From a phage, in the sequence record QB031382.1: 64,000 nt of DNA; one strand, written 5' to 3'. The translations under genes were made by a program, and so were the position numbers. This document shows positions 20,709 through 36,277 of this stretch, one piece after another (position 1 is the first letter of the stretch; each line of letters begins with the position of its first letter). The notes below the pieces were generated by a model. The model was not told where the DNA came from, searched no databases, and saw nothing but the letters and a program-made list of their open reading frames with translations.

Positions 20709-22169
20709 TTATTTAGCGTACTCGATCAATTCTACAGTTTTCCCAAAGCTTGGGATATAATTTTTATTATACCCTTCGGTGAGAACCCATAAAGTATCGT
20801 ACTTTTTCCACTTGTTGTCAACAGCCTTTTGTTCAAAGTTATGCTCAAAGTATAGGTCGGTCAGGACGATGACATCTTTTGCATTTGGTATGTTAGCGTC
20901 CAGATACTCGAACACGCAAGCGGCTGTTGTTCCCCATGTTGAGTGGACCTCATAGTTGATCATCTCGTCGATGTTCCCACGAGTGTATACTTTAACCTCT
21001 CCAACCTCGGTTGACCAGCAGAACATCGTAACCTTGAACTCTTTATACAGATTGCACAACCCAGTGATCTCATTGAACATTTTCTTTAAAGTTCTTTGGG
21101 AGATCGATCCAGAAACGTCTAGAGCCACCACAATATCTATAGTGTTTTCCGGATTACGACCTGGAACAACAACGTGCTGATTCTTGTTTATAGCCCCAAC
21201 TTTTCGCATTGTGCTGGTCAAAGACCCAGATCGGCGACCGGGTTTTCTATAGGTTAGTTCAGCCTTTCGTTTAGACAGCATACGTTGCTTAATGATGTCT
21301 ATATAATTGATTACAGGCTTACCTCTGTTCTTGACAAACTCACGCACAGCCTCAGGGCAACGACCTCCGGAAGCCTGCATTGCTGCTTCCAACATGTCAC
21401 CAGAGTCCTGCATGGCTTGATCTTTATCAGATTGACTGATCACTGGTTGTGGCTGATCATACCCCATCGCCTTTCCAAGATCATCACTAGTGCCACCGTT
21501 ACCACTCATGTGATCATCGGTTTGTCGTTTATCTCCTTGAGAGTTCTCTCCTTTACCGTTCTTACTTTTACCGCTATTCTGATCTCTTTGCTTATCAAGA
21601 ACCGCATAGACGTTCTCAGCAATCCATCCATGGAACCTCATGTCACAGTAGCAACTAGCTAAGAAGCCAAAAGGCTTACCTTTTACAAACGTAGTGCTTT
21701 TCCCCTTCGGGAAGAAAACACAAGGTGGCTTGCTAAAGTCAACCACAAGACCTGTGTTGATAACATGATCACAGGCAATATTGAACAGCTCCGGCTCAAA
21801 GCTTTTACCACGGACCAGATGATCACAGATAATATGTCCCACCTCATGCGATAGAAGAAATGCCACCTCTTTCACAGATTTGGGGGAATAGAAAACCTCA
21901 GCCATCTCAAACTGCTTGTCAGTCAAAGATGCCTTAAGAATGGTTTTGCGCTCATCGGCCAATCCCATAACGAACTCAGGACTGTAATAAATGCGTTTAT
22001 GATCTGTTGCCATGGTGGAGCACCATGTGTGGTTTTCTACGAACTGCAACCCTGATAACAGTGTGCCATAAAACGGCAGTTTTTCAAGAAGATACATACG
22101 TGCTGCCTGCAGCATTCGCAAGGCGTCATCTTTTTGTGCGGCAATGATTTCTGAACTTCTGCTATCCAT
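20709..22169 (-). CDS. vWA-domain protein with N-terminal HExxH metallopeptidase-like domain
   Basis: HEVGH zinc-binding-like motif in N-terminal half; MIDAS-type VVALDVSGSIS (DxSxS) in C-terminal half. Confidence 0.6.
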   Translation of the reverse strand: MDSRSSEIIAAQKDDALRMLQAARMYLLEKLPFYGTLLSGLQFVENHTWCSTMATDHKRIYYSPEFVMGLADERKTILKASLTDKQFEMAEVFYSPKSVKEVAFLLSHEVGHIICDHLVRGKSFEPELFNIACDHVINTGLVVDFSKPPCVFFPKGKSTTFVKGKPFGFLASCYCDMRFHGWIAENVYAVLDKQRDQNSGKSKNGKGENSQGDKRQTDDHMSGNGGTSDDLGKAMGYDQPQPVISQSDKDQAMQDSGDMLEAAMQASGGRCPEAVREFVKNRGKPVINYIDIIKQRMLSKRKAELTYRKPGRRSGSLTSTMRKVGAINKNQHVVVPGRNPENTIDIVVALDVSGSISQRTLKKMFNEITGLCNLYKEFKVTMFCWSTEVGEVKVYTRGNIDEMINYEVHSTWGTTAACVFEYLDANIPNAKDVIVLTDLYFEHNFEQKAVDNKWKKYDTLWVLTEGYNKNYIPSFGKTVELIEYAK

Positions 22170-22202: not shown

Positions 22203-23258
22203 TTATTTAACGTGCTTGAAAATACCAGCCAACTCGGTCATTGTCATGCGGGTGGTCTTCATGAGGTCTGTCATAGCCTTCTCCATAATTGGAGATACTA
22301 CCATAAAGTTACCTTTGGTGAAACCTTTATTCCAGTCGGTAACTAATAGTGGTTTAAGTCCGGACCCGAGACGCTCACCAGTTAAAGCACAACATTTTCG
22401 AATGTATGTGCTCTTAAACTGGCTGAATGACAGATCAACTTTCATACCTGCATCGTAGAACGTCTGGCAATAGAAAGTGTAAGCTTTGGCAATCTCAACA
22501 TCGTCAGGCAGTGCAGGAACCTCTTCTGTAAGCTCTTCTTCGCCCCCTTGAGGCTCTTTTTCCTCTTCGTGGTCTTGTTGTATCATTTCTTCAATCTCTT
22601 CTGTTACAGGCTCGTTTACAATGTCAGAAATGTGCTTGTTGGCTCCACGATTAGCCATGAAGTTTTTAAAATCCTGCATTGGTGACATATCTTCCTCCCA
22701 TTCTTCGTCAAAGAGTGCTAGTTTATCCTCTTCCGTTCCATATTGCAAGATGAAATCTTCAAAAGTGTAATCACCTTTCAATTTCTCCATACGCTCTTCG
22801 CTCAGGTGGAGCATCATCTGCTGGACAATTTTTCGATCAGTTTTGTCTTTAATCAAGATTGCGGTCTTTTTATCTACCAGGCAGTCTTTCAGAGAGTTAC
22901 ACCTCAATCCTACCACACAACAGTTATCAATTGCGTAAGGACCTTCATCATCTATCCGCTCCAGAGATGGGTAGAAAGGATTCCCCAGCCCGTTTTCATC
23001 TGTGTGCATGTCGAAAGGTATAAGGGTATAGTCGCATACCCCCTCTCCTAAAAGTTTTTTACCAAATAGGAGGTATTCTTCCCATGACAGGTTGAACTCT
23101 ATATCTCGTTTCCGTGCATTATTTTGTTTGCGTCTGTATTTTTTGAGCAGGCGCTCTAACTCTTCTGGTGTATAATATTTTTCAAGATTCATGAGTTGTC
23201 TCTTGTGCTCTGTAGGTGGAGAAATCTTATCAAGTGCCTGGGAATATGTCAACCTCAA
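22203..23258 (-). CDS. hypothetical protein with acidic central linker
   Basis: 351 aa; Cys-containing terminal regions with a degenerate HNH-like stretch (ERIDDEGPYAIDNCCVVGLRCN), long Glu/Asp-rich linker. Confidence 0.35.
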   Translation of the reverse strand: MRLTYSQALDKISPPTEHKRQLMNLEKYYTPEELERLLKKYRRKQNNARKRDIEFNLSWEEYLLFGKKLLGEGVCDYTLIPFDMHTDENGLGNPFYPSLERIDDEGPYAIDNCCVVGLRCNSLKDCLVDKKTAILIKDKTDRKIVQQMMLHLSEERMEKLKGDYTFEDFILQYGTEEDKLALFDEEWEEDMSPMQDFKNFMANRGANKHISDIVNEPVTEEIEEMIQQDHEEEKEPQGGEEELTEEVPALPDDVEIAKAYTFYCQTFYDAGMKVDLSFSQFKSTYIRKCCALTGERLGSGLKPLLVTDWNKGFTKGNFMVVSPIMEKAMTDLMKTTRMTMTELAGIFKHVK

Positions 23259-25562: not shown

Positions 25563-25832
25563 ATGTTATACCAGCAGTACGAACTTCGTGCAGAAAAAGA
25601 ATTAAATTTTGACAAAGATATTCACAGATATTATTATGGGAAAGTTAGAGGACAAGCAAGAAAGTGTACTCCAACACTCTTTCATGCCAGCAGACGACTA
25701 GCTCCAGAAGAGGCAACAGCAGAAAGGGTTGCATATGGCTGGAGAGTTGCGTATGATATTGACAGATCCGATGTGATGTCTGTTTTGGAAAACTTTGAAA
25801 ACACTTACACACAAGTAGAGGACTTTTACTAA
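25563..25832 (+). CDS. hypothetical protein
   Basis: 89 aa. Confidence 0.4.
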   Translation: MLYQQYELRAEKELNFDKDIHRYYYGKVRGQARKCTPTLFHASRRLAPEEATAERVAYGWRVAYDIDRSDVMSVLENFENTYTQVEDFY

Positions 25833-27016
25833 TGTCAAGAAACGTATTCGAAAGTGGTCAAATCACTGTCCGCGAGTTGCCAGCTATTATTCAATTTGCC
25901 CAGCGTCATAACCGATCTGTCCTGATTTTAGGACCGATGGGTGTGGGGAAGAGCCAGGTGATGAAGCAGATTGCTGATAATATGTTCGGTGAGCGAGATG
26001 ACAACCTGGTTGACGTGCGGCTGTCAGATAAAGATCCTGCTGACTTATCTGGACTACCTATCCCTGTAGAGGCAGATGGAACTACACGCACAGTGTTTGC
26101 AATTCCAGAATTTTGGCCTGCAGACTCGGACTGGAGCGGAATTATCTTTCTGGATGAGCTTACTCATGCAGATAACTACCTGCAGAAGGTTGCAATGCAA
26201 ATTATGCTCGACCACAAGTGCGGCACCTATGCATTTCCTAAGGGCTCTGTTTTTGTAGCTGCAGGTAACCGTGCTACAGATGGTGCTGTTCTTTCGGCGC
26301 TCGAAGCTCCTCTGGCTAACCGCTTTATCATTGTAGAAGTTACAAGCAATGCAGAGGTATTTATTGAGGACTACGCATTCCTTAATGGTGTACATTCCTC
26401 TGTAATTGGATATCTGAAAAGAGTTCCATCAGCTATCGATAATTATGAGGCTATGGCTGAGATTAATTGTCCGTCTTTTGCCACACCGCGATCTTGGGTT
26501 GCTGCATCTGACATCCTGCACGATTTTGACAGCGGTATTATTTCTGACGCTATGGCTCGTGTTCTTCTGCAAGGTGCTATTGGTCACACTGCAGCGGTAG
26601 AAATCTGGACCTACCACACCAAGAAACGAAACTTGCCAGAAATCGGTCGGATTATGGCAGGGGGTTGCAAAGAGTATGTAGGTCCTAAGCAGCCAGACAT
26701 CTTGTGGATTCTGGGGTCTGAAGGTTGTATCGCTATTCGTAACATGATGGAAAATGCAAGTATCTCCGACGAAGATCTTGTCAGCTGTGTGGCAAACTTC
26801 CTTGATTTCCTTTGGGAAAATTTCAAAGATGAAAACCGAGACTTTGTATTCTCAGTCTTTATGGCGATGATGAAACCCAACGCCCTAGGGAATGCCTTAC
26901 TTATTGGTAAAGGCCGGGACAAGATCGTTGCTCAGCTGATCAAAGCATACCCAAACCTGATGAAGATTGTAAAAGAGTTTGGTGAAGAGTTTAGCGCCAT
27001 TTTAGCTAAAGCTTGA
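25832..27016 (+). CDS. AAA+ ATPase (MoxR/CobS-like)
   Basis: Walker A ILGPMGVGKSQ and Walker B IIFLDELTHAD; about 390 aa. Confidence 0.7.
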   Translation: MSRNVFESGQITVRELPAIIQFAQRHNRSVLILGPMGVGKSQVMKQIADNMFGERDDNLVDVRLSDKDPADLSGLPIPVEADGTTRTVFAIPEFWPADSDWSGIIFLDELTHADNYLQKVAMQIMLDHKCGTYAFPKGSVFVAAGNRATDGAVLSALEAPLANRFIIVEVTSNAEVFIEDYAFLNGVHSSVIGYLKRVPSAIDNYEAMAEINCPSFATPRSWVAASDILHDFDSGIISDAMARVLLQGAIGHTAAVEIWTYHTKKRNLPEIGRIMAGGCKEYVGPKQPDILWILGSEGCIAIRNMMENASISDEDLVSCVANFLDFLWENFKDENRDFVFSVFMAMMKPNALGNALLIGKGRDKIVAQLIKAYPNLMKIVKEFGEEFSAILAKA

Positions 27017-27418: not shown

Positions 27419-27446
27419 CCCCCGCTTCGGCGGGGATTTTCTATTT
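27419..27446 (+). terminator. rho-independent terminator
   Basis: Stem CCCCGC-TTCG-GCGGGG then ATTTTCTATTT; same stem core as the terminator at 1258. Confidence 0.6.
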
Positions 27447-27455
27447 GGAGTTATT

Positions 27456-27956
27456 GTGAAAATTAAGATCTTTGCTATTATTTTGAGCGCATTTTTATCG
27501 CTGCCTGTTGTTGCAGCACCAAAACAAAAAGTATATCACACCTGCAAGCCATCGGATACTAAGGAAAACATTCTAGCATGTAATATCTACAGGGAGGCTA
27601 GAGGGGATGGCACGATGGGTATGCTGGCATCAGGGTTTGCCACACTAAACAGGAAATCTCACCCCAAATACCCGGACACCATAAGAAAGATTGTCTACCA
27701 ACCTAACCAGTTTTCGTGGACAAACCACGGCAAAACTTTTAAGGTGACAGAAAAAGATTCATGGGATCACGCTAAAAGTCTTGCAAAGATGCTTCTAAAG
27801 GTCTATAATAACAACCATGTTGCATACATGGCTATGGATATAACAGGTGGAGCAACACACTATCATACAACAAAAGTACGACCGAAATGGGCAAAAAAGA
27901 TGCAGAGGACAGCTCAATTCGGGAGTCATATCTACTACAAGGAGCGCAATAAATGA
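27456..27956 (+). CDS. secreted cell-wall hydrolase, SleB-like (candidate endolysin)
   Basis: N-terminal signal peptide MKIKIFAIILSAFLSLPVVAAP; motif NIYREARGDG resembles the GEARGE signature of SleB-type hydrolases. Confidence 0.55.
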   Translation: MKIKIFAIILSAFLSLPVVAAPKQKVYHTCKPSDTKENILACNIYREARGDGTMGMLASGFATLNRKSHPKYPDTIRKIVYQPNQFSWTNHGKTFKVTEKDSWDHAKSLAKMLLKVYNNNHVAYMAMDITGGATHYHTTKVRPKWAKKMQRTAQFGSHIYYKERNK

Positions 27957-29935
27957 TTGTAAACAGTAATGAAACTAAAGCAGTGCTAACTGGGAATTTG
28001 GAGGTAACAAGGGGATCAATTTCTCTGAACAAAGAAACTTTTGGGTTAATCATTAAAGGGATTTATGAAGATAAGGTGCTGGCAAGCTGCCGTGAACCAA
28101 TCTTCAATGCTGTGGACTCTCATGTTGAGTCTGGACGTGGTGATGTTCCGATCATCATTCACTCCCCTACAGATCTTGAACCATACTTCTTTGTGCAGGA
28201 CGTTGGCCTCGGTATGTCAGAAGAGATGGTCCGCAACACTTTCATGAACCTCGGCGAGTCAACCAAGCGCGACAGCAACGATCTGGTAGGCAATAAAGGT
28301 GTTGGTTCAAAGGCCCCGTTCAGCATGGTGGACACTTTCGATGTAATCAGTGTGCACAATGGTGTGGAAAGCACATACCTATTGTTCTTGGACCAGGGTA
28401 TCCCAAATGTCACCAAGATCCGTGAGCGGAAGACTGAAGAGCACAATGGAGTAAAAGTTCAGTTTCATGTTAAGAAAGAGCATGTTCTGAAATATCGCAC
28501 CGCTATTGCATCATGTCTGCGCTATGCAAAATTTCCGTTCACTGTCACCGATCCGATGACGAGCAAGATGCTGGAGGGAGACAAAGTAGAGGCGCAGTAT
28601 TATTATGAAAAAGATGGTTGGAAGATGACCATCCTGAAGGGCTATACCAGCTCTGACGAGAGTCGTGTGGTAATGGGTCACCAACCTTACCGTTCTAAGT
28701 TCCTGGAAACACTAACAGATTATCCTGCAATTTGTGTAGAGATCCCTATCGGAGATTGCAATATTAACCCAGGGCGTGAATGGACCATAGAAGGTCACGA
28801 CGATGGTGGATTCCAAGAGCGTTTGGAAGCTTTTGTCAAAGAAGGCATTCGCCTTCGTGGAGCAGAAGTTGTTGCAGAACTGGAGACAGCAAAAACATCC
28901 TCAGAAGCACGCGAGATGATGAAGAACAGTGGAGTGTTCGGGCACATCTTCGGTAAGAATTTTATGTATAACCGTTGGGAAGAAACAGGACTAGGGAATT
29001 TGGGGGACTGCGAGATCTTCGCGGGTGGCTTAAATAAAGGCCGCATAGGCTACGCTTGTTACGGAAAGGTAGAATTCTTACGAGGAGTCTATTTAGTATT
29101 TAACGACGGAGACGGTAAATATAACCGAAATAAGTGTAACTACTTAAGCGAGATCACCGGACGCAACGTTTTCTATTGCCGGAACACGGATCTGGTAAAA
29201 GAGTTTAAAGAGGCGGCACACCATCCGTTTTTTGCAGATACGGTCAAATTGTTATCAGAGCTTCCTCGCCGACCTGTGAAGAAAGGTGAAACCAAAACTC
29301 GTTACGAGCCAGGCTATTGGGTTAAAAAACTTGAGAAGGATGGTTACTTCCGTCGTGAGCGTATTACTAAGGCAGAGTTCAGGAAGATTAAGCACTGCAT
29401 TCCTTATGAGGGTGATATCCAACGTGGAAGTTGTTGGCTGGGACAGCTGAGTAACATCTACCAGCAAAATTATGACCGTGTGCGTGCGGCACTCCAGATT
29501 CCTGAAGGGGAAGATCTGTACCTAGTATCAGAATCTCGTCTGCTTTGGACTGATCCTGATTGCCAGTATGTTACAGAGAAGAATGTGGAACATTTGTTGA
29601 AAGAGGACGCCTGGAAATTCTTACTGACTCGCGCAGCAAATGAAACTTCATATGACAGCCTGTATAGACAATTAGGGAAAATTATTCCCATGCAAGATTT
29701 TGGAAATTATCGGCCACATTTCCACAAGTGGGAAGGTAACACCGCGTGGAAGCACAGTGAGCTAAATCATCGTGCCAAAATCTTAATCGCCAACCGAGTT
29801 AAATGCGGGAAGGCCTATATTGCAAGATTGGAAAAGAAATACCCACTTTTGAAGCATGTAGGCTTGAAATATTGGGACACTCCTGCTATGATTGAATACC
29901 GTGAACTGATCGATACAAAGAATAACATCAAATAA
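27953..29935 (+). CDS. HSP90/HtpG-like GHKL ATPase
   Basis: N-terminal KETFGL...YEDKVL...REPIFNAVDS, G1 box VQDVGLGMS, G2 box GNKGVGSKA line up with the HSP90 ATPase domain; start overlaps upstream stop (ATGA). Confidence 0.55.
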   Translation: MIVNSNETKAVLTGNLEVTRGSISLNKETFGLIIKGIYEDKVLASCREPIFNAVDSHVESGRGDVPIIIHSPTDLEPYFFVQDVGLGMSEEMVRNTFMNLGESTKRDSNDLVGNKGVGSKAPFSMVDTFDVISVHNGVESTYLLFLDQGIPNVTKIRERKTEEHNGVKVQFHVKKEHVLKYRTAIASCLRYAKFPFTVTDPMTSKMLEGDKVEAQYYYEKDGWKMTILKGYTSSDESRVVMGHQPYRSKFLETLTDYPAICVEIPIGDCNINPGREWTIEGHDDGGFQERLEAFVKEGIRLRGAEVVAELETAKTSSEAREMMKNSGVFGHIFGKNFMYNRWEETGLGNLGDCEIFAGGLNKGRIGYACYGKVEFLRGVYLVFNDGDGKYNRNKCNYLSEITGRNVFYCRNTDLVKEFKEAAHHPFFADTVKLLSELPRRPVKKGETKTRYEPGYWVKKLEKDGYFRRERITKAEFRKIKHCIPYEGDIQRGSCWLGQLSNIYQQNYDRVRAALQIPEGEDLYLVSESRLLWTDPDCQYVTEKNVEHLLKEDAWKFLLTRAANETSYDSLYRQLGKIIPMQDFGNYRPHFHKWEGNTAWKHSELNHRAKILIANRVKCGKAYIARLEKKYPLLKHVGLKYWDTPAMIEYRELIDTKNNIK

Positions 29936-29945
29936 GGAGACCAAG

Positions 29946-31151
29946 ATGATTTTCATCTACGAACATTTCAAAACCCGTAAAGAAGCAAGAGACCGCCGTG
30001 CAGAACTTGAGAAGAAGGGTTTCATATGTGCCATTGAGAAAGGCGACACAACCTGGACACTGGCAGTTGGTGCCCCAGAGTTGTTCGATCCTGACCGTGA
30101 CAGCGTCTGCTACACCCGTGAAGATTTTGAAACCCGCGAAGAGGCCCGTTTATTTCGATACGGTCTGGAAGATAACGGTAAGTACGCCATGATCTTAGAT
30201 TTAGGCGAAGGGTCCGTTAAACGTTGGGGCGTGGTATACCCACTGTGTGTTGTTCATGGTGTGGGGTTCACTGGGGTAGCAATCAAGTCAGAAGAACCTT
30301 TAGTAGAAGTCAAAGATCCGGTGCTGGAGGTGGTGAGCAGTGTATCTCAGCAACAGACTCGAAGTATTGAGCCTTTGGTAGTTATTTGTGGGGAACTCCT
30401 CCAGATCACCTGCAACGAAGGCATTTTTGAAATTCGCCGCAGTGAAAGTGAGGAAGTTTACCAGAAAGTCTTCGACCATATCTCTGCCCAGAAATATGAC
30501 GAGGCAATTGGTGAAATCCTTGTCTGGTTGGAACGCAAGAATGAGTTCACTACACTTGCAGACAACCTGATCATGAAAGATGGTAAGCTCTACTACTACG
30601 GTGTAGAGATGCGATCCACCATTGCAAAGAAAATTGAGAAAGATTATGCAGACGGAACACTAGATGACCGCTATGTGAAATTCCTAGTTCGCCTGCTACG
30701 CAATCCTTCTGCAAAATCTGTAAACATGCTCTACGATTTTATGCAGGCCAACGATATCCAGGTTGCAGAAGATGGTCGAATCATTTGCTACAAAGGGGTT
30801 CAGTTTAACGGCAGCAAGTGGGTGGATTGGCACAGTGGTAAAGTTCCACAATACCAGGGTGCTTTTGTATCCATGCCTCGTAACTTTGTAGAGGATGATC
30901 CTGAAGCTGCTTGCTCCTATGGCTTACACTGCGCCAGCAAAGAGTATGCAAAGAGCTACGGCACTGTAATGACTGTTATGGTTGATCCTGCAGATGTGGT
31001 CAGTGTGCCATACCAACACAATAGCGCTAAGTGCCGTGCATGCCGCTATGAGATTGTGGTAGCTCCGGAAGCACGCAAAGACGGAGACCCTATTGAATAT
31101 GTAGTTGATCGTGACGGTAACACTATCGACATTCTTTACGAGGAGGCGTAA
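29946..31151 (+). CDS. hypothetical protein with duplicated N-terminal module
   Basis: 401 aa; two about 35-aa repeats (FKTRKEARDRRAELEKKGF / FETREEARLFRYGLEDNGK); Cys/His-rich C-terminal part. Confidence 0.45.
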   Translation: MIFIYEHFKTRKEARDRRAELEKKGFICAIEKGDTTWTLAVGAPELFDPDRDSVCYTREDFETREEARLFRYGLEDNGKYAMILDLGEGSVKRWGVVYPLCVVHGVGFTGVAIKSEEPLVEVKDPVLEVVSSVSQQQTRSIEPLVVICGELLQITCNEGIFEIRRSESEEVYQKVFDHISAQKYDEAIGEILVWLERKNEFTTLADNLIMKDGKLYYYGVEMRSTIAKKIEKDYADGTLDDRYVKFLVRLLRNPSAKSVNMLYDFMQANDIQVAEDGRIICYKGVQFNGSKWVDWHSGKVPQYQGAFVSMPRNFVEDDPEAACSYGLHCASKEYAKSYGTVMTVMVDPADVVSVPYQHNSAKCRACRYEIVVAPEARKDGDPIEYVVDRDGNTIDILYEEA

Positions 31152-32521
31152 TGGAAAAAGGGCAGTATGATGTAGGCACAGATGCTGCCCTCGTTGCAAT
31201 CATGAGCGGTGAGAATGTCTTCGTTTCAGGACCTGCAGGTTGTGGGAAGACGTATCTCATCAACATGATCCAGTCAATGTATGGAGACTCTTGCATAACG
31301 GTTGCCCCGACAGGGGTAGCCGCTTTAAACGTTAATGGAGCAACAGCACACCGAACCTTCGATCTTGCAGCAGGTGTGAGCATGGAGTCAGACTGGACCG
31401 CAATAAGGGCAAAAACAGCAAAGCCTTTGAAAAGCAAGGCATTTACCATCCTAATTATCGATGAAATCTCTATGATCCGTGCTGATAAGTTTATAGAGAT
31501 GGATAGGAAACTCCGCTTCCTTCGAAAAAATGACAAACCTTTCGGAGACATACAGGTCATATTGTTTGGCGATTTTTACCAGGCACCTCCTGTTGTCTCT
31601 TCTATGGAGAAGGAAGCCTACTTCAACTTCTACCATACGGACCTGTGTTGCTATACCGAATCTTGGAAAGAGCTTGACCTCCACAACATAGCCCTAGTAG
31701 ATCAGTTCCGACAGGAGTCTATTCGATTTGCCACAATGCTCAACTGTGTTCGTGAGGGTCGTCGCATAAAAGAGGTTGTAGCAGAACTTAATGCTCGCTG
31801 TTACAAAGGCGGTGTACCAACAGACGCTCTCACAATTTGCGCCACCAACAAACAAGCGGAGGAAGTGAACAGAAGGTTCTATGATGCCATCAACGCCCCA
31901 GAGAAGGTATACACTGGTGAAATGAAGGGTAAGTTTCCCTCCACCCTGCCAGTTGAGCAGGAGATGAAGTTGAAAATTGGCATGAAAGTTATGATAACCG
32001 CCAACGATGTTGACCCGACGCACAAGGTACCTTATTATGTTAACGGAACACGTGCCACAATTGTTAAATTTAAGAACAAGGCGGTGGTGGTAGAGCTTGA
32101 AGATGGAACACAGGTTGACATAGAGCAGAGGTTGTGGGAGAATAACGAGTATAAGCCATCTCAGAGATACAACATTGCAGAAAGGAAGATGGAGAAGTTT
32201 ATAGAGAGGGTAGTGATTGGGTCATACAAGCAACTTCCTCTGAAATCTGGGTACGCCGTAACATCTCATAAAAGTCAAGGGCTTACGCTAGATTGTTACA
32301 ACCTAGACCTTGGAAAGAACGGAGCTTTCTCTCCTGGGATGACGTATGTCGCTTTGAGTAGAGTTAAGACAATACAAGGAATAAACTTGTTGCGTCCACT
32401 AAGAGAAGTTGACATTATTGTTGACCCGCGAGTCGTAGAGTTTTACAATACAACATTCCCTGACTTAGACAAAATTGTCAGGAAAGATTTTGAAACCAGA
32501 GTAGAAGAGGGGGACGTATGA
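31151..32521 (+). CDS. SF1B DNA helicase (Dda / Pif1 / RecD-like)
   Basis: Walker A GPAGCGKT, Walker B IIDEISMI, C-terminal TSHKSQGLTLD. Confidence 0.75.
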   Translation: MEKGQYDVGTDAALVAIMSGENVFVSGPAGCGKTYLINMIQSMYGDSCITVAPTGVAALNVNGATAHRTFDLAAGVSMESDWTAIRAKTAKPLKSKAFTILIIDEISMIRADKFIEMDRKLRFLRKNDKPFGDIQVILFGDFYQAPPVVSSMEKEAYFNFYHTDLCCYTESWKELDLHNIALVDQFRQESIRFATMLNCVREGRRIKEVVAELNARCYKGGVPTDALTICATNKQAEEVNRRFYDAINAPEKVYTGEMKGKFPSTLPVEQEMKLKIGMKVMITANDVDPTHKVPYYVNGTRATIVKFKNKAVVVELEDGTQVDIEQRLWENNEYKPSQRYNIAERKMEKFIERVVIGSYKQLPLKSGYAVTSHKSQGLTLDCYNLDLGKNGAFSPGMTYVALSRVKTIQGINLLRPLREVDIIVDPRVVEFYNTTFPDLDKIVRKDFETRVEEGDV

Positions 32522-32920: not shown

Positions 32921-34249
32921 ATGAGTAAAACCAAATTAGAACTTACCTGGGTAGGTAAAAACGAGCGCAAAAAGTTAGAGCCGCACATTTTGTTAGAAGA
33001 TTCTAGCAAATCTTACCACAGCCAGAAAGTGACCGAAAACGATATTTTTGATAATAAACTGATTTTTGGAGATAACTTATTAGCATTGAAGGCGCTAGAG
33101 CAAGAGTATGCAGGCAAAGTGAAGTGTGTTTACATAGACCCACCATTCAATACCGGGAGGGCTTTTGAGCACTACGATGATAGCCTGGAGCATTCCATTT
33201 GGCTGGGCTTAATGAGGGATAGGTTAGAAATAATTCGTAATCTTCTGAGTGATGATGGGGTAATATTCGTTCACTTAGATGGTTGCGAAATGGCGTATTT
33301 AAAAGTTTTGATGGACGAGATTTTTGGTCGTGCAAATCAGTTAAATACCATCTCGATGACCACAAATTCCCCTTCAGGATTTAAGGCAACAGGAGCCACA
33401 GTTTTCTCCACAGCAAACTTTTTGCTTGTATATGCAAAAGATCGCAACCAGAAACCGCTTAACAAAATCTATATACCTAAAGGGTATGATACAGGATATA
33501 ACAAATACCTATTAAACCCGGATGACCATTATAAAAATTGGACGTGGTGTGGTATTGCCGATGCGTTTGCAAAGGCCCATGGCTATAAAGATGCAAAAGA
33601 AGCCAAGAAAAAACTGCCTGACACATTCGATGATGAATTAGCACAATTCGCAATTGATAATGCAGAACGTGTATTTCAATCTGTTGCAATTGGTGGTGGT
33701 GCTAAAATAAAGAGAAAAGAAACTATCGAGAAGTCAAAGAAAGATAGGGATAAGGTTTATGTACATCCAAATGAGGATGTTGAAGGATTTTATATCGCAA
33801 ATGGTAGGCAAATGGTCTTTTACTCCAACAGGCTTTTGGAAATTGACGGTGAGATGCAGCCTGCGGAACTAATAACTGATGTTTGGACAGATATTAGTTG
33901 GAATGGAATAGCAAATGAAGGTGGCGTTAGTTTCAAAAATGGTAAAAAACCAGAAGCGCTTTTGAAGCGGATTTTCGAAATGTGTACGCGAGAAGGCGAT
34001 TTGGTATTGGATTCATTCGGTGGTTCGGGAACTACTGCTGCTGTAGCTCACAAAATGAAAAGACGTTGGATCTTGATCGAACTGGGTGATCATTGTCATA
34101 CCCATATTATTCCGCGCTTGGAAAAAGTGATCGATGGCGAAGATCAAGGTGGTATTTCTAAGTCTGTAAACTGGCAAGGTGGTGGTGGTGGCTTCCGTTA
34201 TTACAAACTTACCCCGGCCTTAATTGCGAAAGATATGTCTGATCAATAA
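32921..34249 (+). CDS. DNA methyltransferase, beta-class amino-MTase (N6-adenine or N4-cytosine)
   Basis: Motif IV DPPF (CVYIDPPFNTG) precedes motif I FGGSGTT (DSFGGSGTTAAVA); strong RBS AAGGAGA. Confidence 0.75.
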   Translation: MSKTKLELTWVGKNERKKLEPHILLEDSSKSYHSQKVTENDIFDNKLIFGDNLLALKALEQEYAGKVKCVYIDPPFNTGRAFEHYDDSLEHSIWLGLMRDRLEIIRNLLSDDGVIFVHLDGCEMAYLKVLMDEIFGRANQLNTISMTTNSPSGFKATGATVFSTANFLLVYAKDRNQKPLNKIYIPKGYDTGYNKYLLNPDDHYKNWTWCGIADAFAKAHGYKDAKEAKKKLPDTFDDELAQFAIDNAERVFQSVAIGGGAKIKRKETIEKSKKDRDKVYVHPNEDVEGFYIANGRQMVFYSNRLLEIDGEMQPAELITDVWTDISWNGIANEGGVSFKNGKKPEALLKRIFEMCTREGDLVLDSFGGSGTTAAVAHKMKRRWILIELGDHCHTHIIPRLEKVIDGEDQGGISKSVNWQGGGGGFRYYKLTPALIAKDMSDQ

Positions 34250-35466: not shown

Positions 35467-35494
35467 GGCCCTGCCCGAAAGGGTGGGGCTTTTT
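35467..35494 (+). terminator. rho-independent terminator
   Basis: Stem CCCTGCCC-GAAA-GGGTGGGG (two G-U pairs) then CTTTTT; same element recurs at 45952. Confidence 0.55.
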
Positions 35495-35512
35495 GCATTA
35501 GGAGACAGCAAA

Positions 35513-36277
35513 TTGAAATTCATCTACAAAGAACACTACCACAAAGGTGTTGTGTGGAGTCTATTTGACGGGTCTGGTGGTGCAGTTATTGACTGGGCAA
35601 AAGCTGGGTACCTGTGCCTGTGCTTTAATGCAGAAGGTGCTGACCACGGCAGTTATGCAGAGGTGATAACCGATCATCCAAATATTCACTATGTGGATTA
35701 TTGGATTGACCCATGGTTCCCTCAAGAAACTTTTTGCATGTATCCAGCTCCAGACTTTATTCTTGCATTTCCTCCGTGCACGCATTTAGCGGTATCAGGA
35801 GCTGCACACTTTAAGAAAAAGCTGGCTAAGGACCCACTGATCCAGATTAACGCTGTAAAGGATGCTCGGGTTGCAGAAGAGTTGGGAGAGATTTACGATT
35901 GCCCGTGGCATGTAGAGAATCCTGTGGGTGTTATGTCCACGCTGTGGCGCAAACCTGATTACCGTTTTCACCCTTCTGATTATGGCGGGTATTTACCGGA
36001 GGATGATGTAAACCCCTGGTTTCCTGAATTTATAGCTCCACGTGATGCCTATCCAAAAATAACTTGCGGCTGGATAGGTAATGGATTTATAATCCCGGTC
36101 ACAAAACCTGTCCCGCAAATAGTTGACGCGGTTAGCGGGTATTCCATGCAACACGCCAAGCTGGGGGGAAAGAGTGCAAGAACAAAGATGATTCGAAGCC
36201 TCACACCCCGTGGCTGGGCAAAAGCTGTATTCTTAGCAAACGAGCCTGCAGTAAGGAGCAGAATTAATGGGAAGTAA
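35513..36277 (+). CDS. cytosine-C5 DNA methyltransferase-like protein
   Basis: Motif I LFDGSGG, motif IV-like FPPCT (PCQ variant), motif VI ENPVG, C-terminal RSLTPRGWAKA resembling motif X; start taken as TTG after RBS AGGAGA, uncertain. Confidence 0.5.
   Translation: MKFIYKEHYHKGVVWSLFDGSGGAVIDWAKAGYLCLCFNAEGADHGSYAEVITDHPNIHYVDYWIDPWFPQETFCMYPAPDFILAFPPCTHLAVSGAAHFKKKLAKDPLIQINAVKDARVAEELGEIYDCPWHVENPVGVMSTLWRKPDYRFHPSDYGGYLPEDDVNPWFPEFIAPRDAYPKITCGWIGNGFIIPVTKPVPQIVDAVSGYSMQHAKLGGKSARTKMIRSLTPRGWAKAVFLANEPAVRSRINGK

Follow-up and report, generated by a model that had tools for sequence, protein, structure and literature searches.

The rII locus of an rV5-like coliphage: rIIA, rIIB and an adjacent SleB-like hydrolase gene

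What is the 660-amino acid (aa) protein whose gene overlaps the end of a cell-wall hydrolase gene in phage record QB031382.1? The DNA analysed is a stretch of 64,000 nucleotides (nt) of this record, here termed the window, and all coordinates are window positions. A preliminary description, made from the letters alone, took the protein for an HSP90/HtpG-like ATPase in an arrangement with no characterised phage counterpart, and offered chaperoning of virion or replisome assembly, action on DNA and counter-defence as possible roles. The reading frame at 27953..29935 is a gene that was known and annotated before, and it does not represent a new kind of phage chaperone. The protein is very probably rIIA and the next gene rIIB; the two make up the rII locus of a coliphage of the genus Vequintavirus (rV5-like). 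The mechanism proposed below is included in this judgement. What is directly observed is that the two genes belong to the rIIA and rIIB families, that the GHKL motifs are intact, that an ATPase and transducer module with an invariant Arg-Glu is predicted, that the C-terminal region of rIIA is lineage-specific and lacks a solved relative, and that rIIA and rIIB are constantly adjacent.

Identity of the locus

The protein matches PHROG 612, 'RIIA lysis inhibitor', with E = 5.5e-125, and residues 1-658 align with positions 1-724 of the 725-position profile. Five other RIIA PHROGs also match (8.9e-34 to 3e-18). By BLASTP the protein shows 28% identity to T4 rIIA over aa 1-198 (E = 3e-22), and by tblastn 2645 phage records from many host genera, T4 records included, contain a sequence like rIIA. 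The product of the following gene matches PHROG 609 RIIB (1.5e-61) and is 37% identical to T4 rIIB over 204 C-terminal residues (BLASTP, E = 4e-40); the C-terminal ~200 aa of the window protein constitute the conserved rIIB domain.

At the nucleotide level, megablast places the window among the rV5-like coliphages (Vequintavirus). The stretch from the SleB-like hydrolase gene through rIIA and rIIB to a helicase gene is matched by 121-123 phage records at 92-98% identity, and the nearest record is vB-EcoM-WM (PQ014731), at 96.7-97.6%. Many of the matching records label the genes 'rIIA', 'rIIB', 'RIIA protector from prophage-induced early lysis' or 'membrane integrity protector', and the record start is set at rIIA in rV5, FV3, FFH2 and Murica, likewise in T4. 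The statement that no phage protein of this arrangement had been characterised therefore does not hold, as the protein is rIIA with rIIB immediately downstream, and many near-identical genomes already carry this annotation. The description was exact in the coordinates of both reading frames and in the ATGA overlap of stop and start that joins them.

It should be pointed out that 16 unannotated GenBank records of the series MG0656xx, termed 'Campylobacter phage' with Campylobacter jejuni as host, are 93-95% identical to the window over the entire locus. It looks as if the host of these records was mis-assigned or the dataset contaminated.

The constancy of the pair was examined in 80 rIIA loci from IMG/VR, gathered with a five-sequence rIIA alignment, in which SleB, rIIB, helicase and MoxR homologues were located by tblastn. 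rIIB lies directly 3′ of rIIA in 73 of the 80 loci, that is, in 73 of 73 that can be evaluated; the seven unscored loci end 1.0-2.4 kb past the rIIA start.

Domain architecture of rIIA and rIIB

The rIIA protein has previously been described as a GHKL ATPase at the N-terminus joined to a variable C-terminal domain (PMC7824862). The N-terminal region of the window protein fits this description. Residues 50-147 match Pfam HATPase_c_3 with E = 1.6e-8, and the score of 35.1 bits exceeds the curated cut-off of 25. A search of the PDB with a profile built from an alignment of five rIIA proteins retrieves only N-domains of the HSP90 family, with TRAP1 at 3.9e-7, GRP94 at 7.7e-6 and HtpG at 1.7e-5. 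In an hhalign comparison based on 29 sequences, rIIA 29-198 aligns with Escherichia coli HtpG 16-210 with 96.4% probability (E = 1.2e-9), and the three motifs of the fold are brought into register: REPIFNAVD with RELISNASD, DVGLGM with DNGVGM, and GNKGVGSKA with GQFGVGFYS. The GHKL assignment stands far above chance. The HSP90-like N-terminus proposed earlier is borne out, and placement in a non-GHKL fold did not occur. The motifs quoted in that proposal are all present in rIIA, namely KETFGL (27-32), YEDKVL (38-43), REPIFNAVDS (47-56), VQDVGLGMS (81-89) and GNKGVGSKA (113-121).

Nine residues, E48, N52, D55, D83, G85, G87, G113, G116 and G118, are unchanged in 29 rIIA sequences and in T4. In GHKL ATPases, residues at these places are the catalytic Glu, the Asn that binds Mg, the Asp that binds adenine, and the glycines of the lid hinges.

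No solved structure of rIIA is present in the PDB, as judged by phmmer and a profile search. An AlphaFold2 (AF2) model has a predicted local distance difference test (pLDDT) score of 82.6; a low-confidence loop at residues 102-114 coincides with the position expected for the ATP lid. A Foldseek search with the model places full-length TRAP1, GRP94 and Hsc82 at the top of the ranking. The conserved part of rIIA is predicted from the model to be a complete GHL ATPase and transducer module, the second domain being beta-rich and transducer-like.

In the transducer-like domain, R275-E276 is invariant across all rIIA sequences examined, T4 included. The surrounding pattern is G-x-x-D-[IV]-x-x-[SG]-R-E-x-[LT], which resembles the HSP90 catalytic loop (SDLPLNVSREIL in HtpG), and the invariant [SG]RE is placed at the right distance for the HSP90 LNxSRE loop. 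R275 is a candidate for a gamma-phosphate-sensing arginine.

Downstream of the transducer-like domain, residues ~291-660 are modelled confidently by AF2 as alpha/beta and helical domains, and no structural relative of this region was found among solved structures with the model. The preliminary description had given the protein about 450 aa with no recognisable domain. This stands for residues ~290-660; at ~195-290 the model has the transducer domain.

The rIIB protein has a different organization. Its N-terminal ~110 aa (29946-30280) consist of two tandem repeats of ~45 aa with the pattern E-F-x-TR-x-EAR...LE..G, which match each other by BLASTP with E = 2e-4 and show a weak match to Pfam SPOR (E = 0.0035). 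One GenBank record names Vequintavirus rIIB a 'SPOR domain-containing protein'. T4 rIIB gives no alignment to the window rIIB over this repeat region. The positions of the features are collected in Table 1.

Table 1. Features of the rII locus and its immediate surroundings in the window
Feature	Coordinates	Strand	Remarks
Intrinsic-terminator-like hairpin	27420..27435	+	CCCCGC-TTCG-GCGGGG followed by a T-run, ATTTTCTATTT; 3′ of the 126-aa ORF and 5′ of the SleB-like gene
SleB-type (Hydrolase_2) cell-wall hydrolase, predicted secreted	27456..27956	+	166 aa; GTG start
rIIA	27953..29935	+	660 aa, stop included; PHROG 612, T4 BLASTP, annotation in near-identical phages
Bergerat (GHKL) ATP-binding domain of rIIA	28025..28522	+	residues ~25-190
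GHKL motif I	28094-28117	+	E48, N52, D55; invariant residues
GHKL motif II	28199-28213	+	D83, G85, G87; invariant residues
GHKL motif III	28289-28312	+	G113, G116, G118 invariant; S119 and K120 nearly so
Transducer-like beta-rich domain of rIIA	28535..28822	+	residues ~195-290
R275-E276 of rIIA	28775-28780	+	'NPGREW' here, 'APSREAL' in T4
C-terminal region of rIIA	28823..29932	+	residues ~291-660; lineage-specific
rIIB	29946..31151	+	401 aa; own AAGGAG ribosome-binding site; starts 10 nt after the rIIA stop
Dda/Pif1-like SF1B helicase	31151..32521	+	Pfam PIF1 2.6e-31; PHROG 325 Dda-like helicase 9e-111

Neighbouring genes and their packing

The gene upstream of rIIA encodes a full-length match to Pfam Hydrolase_2 (PF07486; 2.1e-19, 70.4 bits where 27 are required, positions 2-100 of 100). 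The protein also matches PHROG 938 endolysin (1.7e-27), and relatives carry the annotation 'cell wall hydrolase SleB'. Its N-terminus, MKIKIFAIILSAFLSLPVVAA, resembles a signal peptide, with a maximum Kyte-Doolittle (KD) hydropathy of 2.29 and an n/h/c-region pattern of MKIK-IFAIILSAFLSL-PVVAA; this is judged from hydropathy and pattern, not by a dedicated signal-peptide predictor. Similar N-termini are found in the SleB homologues of Hena1, CR9, VivaForever and T5-like phages. The earlier view of a SleB-type hydrolase with a signal-peptide-like N-terminus is thus consistent with what is found. The spore SleB equivalog TIGR02869, with a cut-off of 236.5 bits, gives a score of 48.3 and is covered only at positions 83-201 of 201. 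This partial match below the cut-off suggests a secreted single-domain enzyme and not the spore cortex-lytic SleB. The gene is not part of a lysis cassette but belongs to the early/replication region.

The GTG start of the hydrolase gene is preceded by GGAG at 5 nt. Most other records annotate the 166-aa form that begins at this GTG and has this ribosome-binding site. In PQ014731 (40038-40379) the hydrolase is annotated from an internal ATG (window 27616, 113 aa), and the signal-peptide-like N-terminus is lost.

The genes are tightly packed. The rIIA ATG (27953-27955), which has AAGGAG 8 nt before it, overlaps the hydrolase TGA (27954-27956), and from the hydrolase gene through rIIA, rIIB, the helicase gene and a following open reading frame (ORF) of 113 aa there are only overlaps or 10-nt gaps. 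The last nucleotide of the rIIB stop is also the first of the helicase gene, which is therefore part of the same array. This packing fits a single transcript, reached either through transcription that reads through from before or from a promoter further upstream.

About 20 nt separate the strong, GC-rich terminator-like hairpin (Table 1) from the GTG of the hydrolase gene, and in phage Gotham (MT682716) a terminator is annotated by ARNold at the equivalent position. As the gap is too short for a sigma-70 promoter, either the array is reached by read-through, or the hairpin has a part in attenuation or in RNA stability. A scan found no terminator-like site at the junction of the hydrolase gene and rIIA or at that of rIIA and rIIB; within rIIA there is a weak stem-loop match at 28361-28379, in a scan where such sites occur at chance frequency. 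Sigma-70 promoter matches between 23 and 35 kb number 25 against 21.7 expected, which is chance level, and thus no promoter can be assigned to the unit of hydrolase gene and rIIA. A tRNA scan of the whole window found none.

How general is the hydrolase as a partner of rIIA? In the 80 loci described above, a SleB-like gene lies 5′ of rIIA in 12, each Vequintavirinae-like. Full-length rIIA matches are found in 19 loci, also Vequintavirinae-like; in 17 of these the helicase gene comes after rIIB, and the other two are cut by contig ends. The nearest sister clade, with rIIA 52-53% identical, has the order MoxR, orf126, rIIA, rIIB, helicase, without SleB. In distant Vequintavirinae (Hena1 and a Klebsiella phage) an extra small ORF lies between SleB and rIIA. 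Cronobacter phage CR9 (NC_023717, 61595-59323) has SleB, a small ORF and the helicase, with no rIIA or rIIB at the syntenic position. VivaForever, unclassified in its record, and the T5-like JLBYU40 carry SleB homologues without adjacent rII genes, and T4 and Suspvirus have rIIA and rIIB with no SleB-like neighbour. The hydrolase gene and rIIA had been put forward as a gene pair to be sought in related phages. Neighbourhood counts and annotated relatives led to rejection of a conserved pair. By the refuting condition set in the preliminary description the idea largely fails, the arrangement being present in 12 of the 80 loci and absent from the nearest sister clade. Because the presence of SleB is patchy across rIIA loci and relatives, its coupling to rIIA is a trait of the genus and not of the rII system. 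The hydrolase is an upstream neighbour that is translationally coupled to rIIA only in this genus, and it is not a general rII component.

The locus had also been placed between an AAA+ ATPase and an SF1B helicase. Both genes are present, but neither adjoins rIIA directly: upstream there are the 126-aa ORF and the hairpin, and rIIB, which was not mentioned, precedes the helicase gene. The AAA+ ATPase is MoxR-like (25563-27016, + strand), and a small ORF upstream is also annotated 'ATPase'. MoxR ATPases usually act with VWA partners. A DUF2201 metallopeptidase/VWA-like protein is encoded a few kb from the MoxR-like gene on the opposite strand (20709-22169, - strand). The sister clade keeps the MoxR-like ATPase gene 5′ of rIIA, with only the orf126 homologue (72% identity) between them.

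Other genes of the region may be mentioned. An ORF of 351 aa (22203-23258, - strand) is termed 'anti-sigma factor' in relatives and has no Pfam match. Its functional labels conflict, since the PHROG matches are to an HNH endonuclease (6.7e-112) and to 'decoy of host sigma70' and 'Srd anti-sigma factor' (1e-10 to 1e-13). Just 3′ of the array of rII and helicase genes, before the primase/helicase and polymerase genes, are two DNA methyltransferase genes at 32921-34249 and 35483-36277, annotated as N6/N4 MTase (Pfam 9.3e-42) and 'site-specific DNA methylase'. The two enzymes probably serve anti-restriction self-methylation.

Function, alternative readings and known systems

The rII proteins of T4 are membrane-associated, according to older literature. 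The classic pair of rIIA and rIIB enables phages to evade abortive infection encoded by prophages. T4 thus multiplies in lambda lysogens, where the pair counters RexAB, an abortive-infection system that acts through membrane depolarisation. Knockdown of rIIA or rIIB lowers plating on RexAB hosts and has no effect on naive hosts, as reported collectively for five phages, EdH4 among them (PMC11879866). EdH4 belongs to Vequintavirus murica, as do isim, Gotham and Murica, and these three match the window locus at 93-95.5%. Transposon-insertion data from T4 support the role of rII against RexAB (10.1101/2025.11.20.689424), and in the Felixounavirus Bas63, rIIA/B are required against QatABCD (10.1101/2024.10.10.617714). 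In addition, rIIB itself triggers a bacterial gasdermin/CARD system. Counter-defence, one of the roles offered in the preliminary description, is in the literature the established role of the rIIA family. A PADLOC scan of the rIIA, rIIB, SleB-like, MoxR and DUF2201 proteins gave no significant homology to defence systems.

A mechanism can be proposed for this role. rIIA would bind ATP, as other GHL ATPases do, and its N-terminal domains would dimerise into a nucleotide-gated clamp in which R275 might sense the gamma-phosphate. The variable C-terminal region of rIIA, together with rIIB, may give specificity for the target or partner. The two proteins would then prevent or undo the depolarisation of the membrane by the abortive response, and the infected cell would keep its proton-motive force until normal lysis.

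Several points weigh against this mechanism and should be set beside it. We infer the clamp and the arginine sensor from fold and conservation alone. In the hhalign alignment, rIIA has a Val opposite the Thr of the HtpG 'RGT'. The best local match that pairs R275 with HtpG R336 (HtpG 328-345) comprises 18 columns at 3% probability, and a profile of the rIIA transducer region finds no HSP90 or GHL protein in the PDB, only spurious prefoldin matches; on account of these two results R275 is kept as a candidate sensor. Hydropathy analysis reveals no clear transmembrane segment in rIIA (maximum KD 0.93) and no clear transmembrane segment or signal peptide in rIIB, where residues 95-113 are moderately hydrophobic (maximum KD 1.69). 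Any action of the two proteins at the membrane would therefore be peripheral or through partners. Finally, one comparative-genomics paper takes rIIB for a transcription factor (PMC7824862).

The last point bears on a reading in which rIIA is a GHL clamp acting on DNA in the manner of MORC, MutL or GyrB, rIIB a DNA-binding or transcription factor, and protection from RexAB an indirect effect. The fold is compatible with such a reading, which is nonetheless quite unlikely. Neither Pfam nor the C-terminal model reveals in rIIA any domain for the handling of DNA, be it Toprim, the MutL C-terminal domain, CW or another, and the rIIA profile retrieves HSP90s from the PDB and not topoisomerases, MutL or MORC. 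The transducer residue of rIIA is an Arg, as we take it to be in HSP90, rather than the Lys which is presumably found at that place in GyrB and MutL. DNA binding by RexA and the known phenotypes do not establish that rII acts on DNA. The affinity to HSP90 raises in turn the question of whether rIIA might be an HSP90-type chaperone that helps parts of the virion or replisome to fold or assemble, as first suggested. The N-terminal domain is indeed nearest by sequence to HSP90-family N-domains, full-length HSP90-like chaperones head the Foldseek ranking, and the gene sits in the replication-gene region of the window. Yet there is no Pfam HSP90 match, and with the NCBIfam HSP90-family model the protein reaches 22 bits where 455 are required. 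With these curated models failed and the C-terminal 375 aa without likeness to the HSP90 middle or C-terminal domains in the model, membership of rIIA in the HSP90 family was rejected. Moreover, knockdown of rII in the five phages, one of them of the same genus, is reported to be harmless on naive hosts (PMC11879866), unlike what would be expected for an assembly chaperone. A literature search, made within one library, that joined rIIA with Hsp90 gave nothing relevant, and the chaperone role, found to be without support, is hardly tenable.

A further reading starts from the gene order and makes the SleB-like hydrolase, rIIA and rIIB one functional envelope module in Vequintavirus. The translational coupling at ATGA, the absence of terminator-like sites at the two junctions, the position of SleB 5′ of rIIA in the 12 Vequintavirinae-like loci, and the weak SPOR-like repeats of rIIB with the one record named after them all point in this direction. 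However, SleB is missing from the sister clade and from T4, Suspvirus and all other rIIA loci; it is split from rIIA by a small ORF in distant Vequintavirinae, and is kept without adjacent rII genes in CR9, VivaForever and JLBYU40. As its distribution is this patchy, a module of SleB and rII is very improbable. In addition, rIIB has no signal peptide, which makes a peptidoglycan-binding role topologically unlikely. A particular form of the idea, in which the SleB-like muramidase, rIIA and the SPOR-repeat rIIB form an envelope-directed unit whose GHL clamp is the motor that neutralises membrane-depolarising effectors, is likewise quite unlikely. If true, it would tie a periplasmic peptidoglycan-remodelling enzyme functionally to the ATP-driven rII pair and give a concrete, testable biochemical mechanism for the 70-year-old rII problem.

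The rII counter-defence reading is thus the one retained. As a discovery the locus has little weight, as rIIA is a textbook phage gene that is correctly annotated in many near-identical genomes of a well-sampled genus, and the residual value lies in family-wide structural details of rIIA and not in the window locus as such. The modest additions are that the conserved unit is rIIA and rIIB, that rIIA has, in the model, an ATPase and transducer module whose invariant Arg-Glu hints at a nucleotide-gated clamp, and that its C-terminal region has no solved relative. E48, N52, D83 and R275, together with the domain boundaries, are usable targets for studies of the mechanism of rII counter-defence. 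CR9, a natural relative with no rII at the syntenic position, offers a possible comparison for rII function.

With respect to known systems, rIIA shares with HtpG, TRAP1 and GRP94 the HSP90-type N-terminal ATP-binding domain. The large middle and C-terminal dimerisation domains of HSP90 are not in rIIA, and the reported rII knockdown phenotype is conditional on host defence. The two-domain module of ATPase and transducer is, as far as the model indicates, also common to rIIA and GyrB/ParE, MutL and MORC. The family-specific downstream domains of these proteins, as well as those of SMCHD1, Topo VI-B and the sacsin SRR, are absent from rIIA, and none of them gives a sequence-profile match in the PDB. 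The hydrolase compares with SleB/Hydrolase_2 enzymes in having the full catalytic domain, and its homologues are found in Vequintavirinae and T5-like phages.

The T4 system is similar in that rIIA is followed by rIIB, and in rIIA the N-terminal ~200 aa are conserved, among them every GHKL motif, as is the R-E further downstream. In both phages the rII genes are non-structural and lie outside the virion-gene block, and the conditional anti-RexAB role of T4 is reported also for EdH4, of the same genus as the window phage. There are also differences. The C-terminal ~370 aa of the window rIIA cannot be aligned to T4 by BLASTP, which is expected for the rIIA family (PMC7824862). The window rIIA has 660 aa and that of T4 725 aa, the rIIB proteins have 401 and 312 aa, respectively, and the N-terminus of the window rIIB, with its two SPOR-like repeats, is unlike that of T4. 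The neighbours also differ, with the SleB-like gene upstream and the helicase gene downstream in the window, whereas in T4 rIIA.1 and topoisomerase genes lie by rIIA, and denB.1 and denB by rIIB. The closest comparison is with the Vequintavirus phages rV5, FV3, Murica and EdH4, which have the same gene order and the same overlaps with no substantive difference. The window is a further isolate of Vequintavirus.

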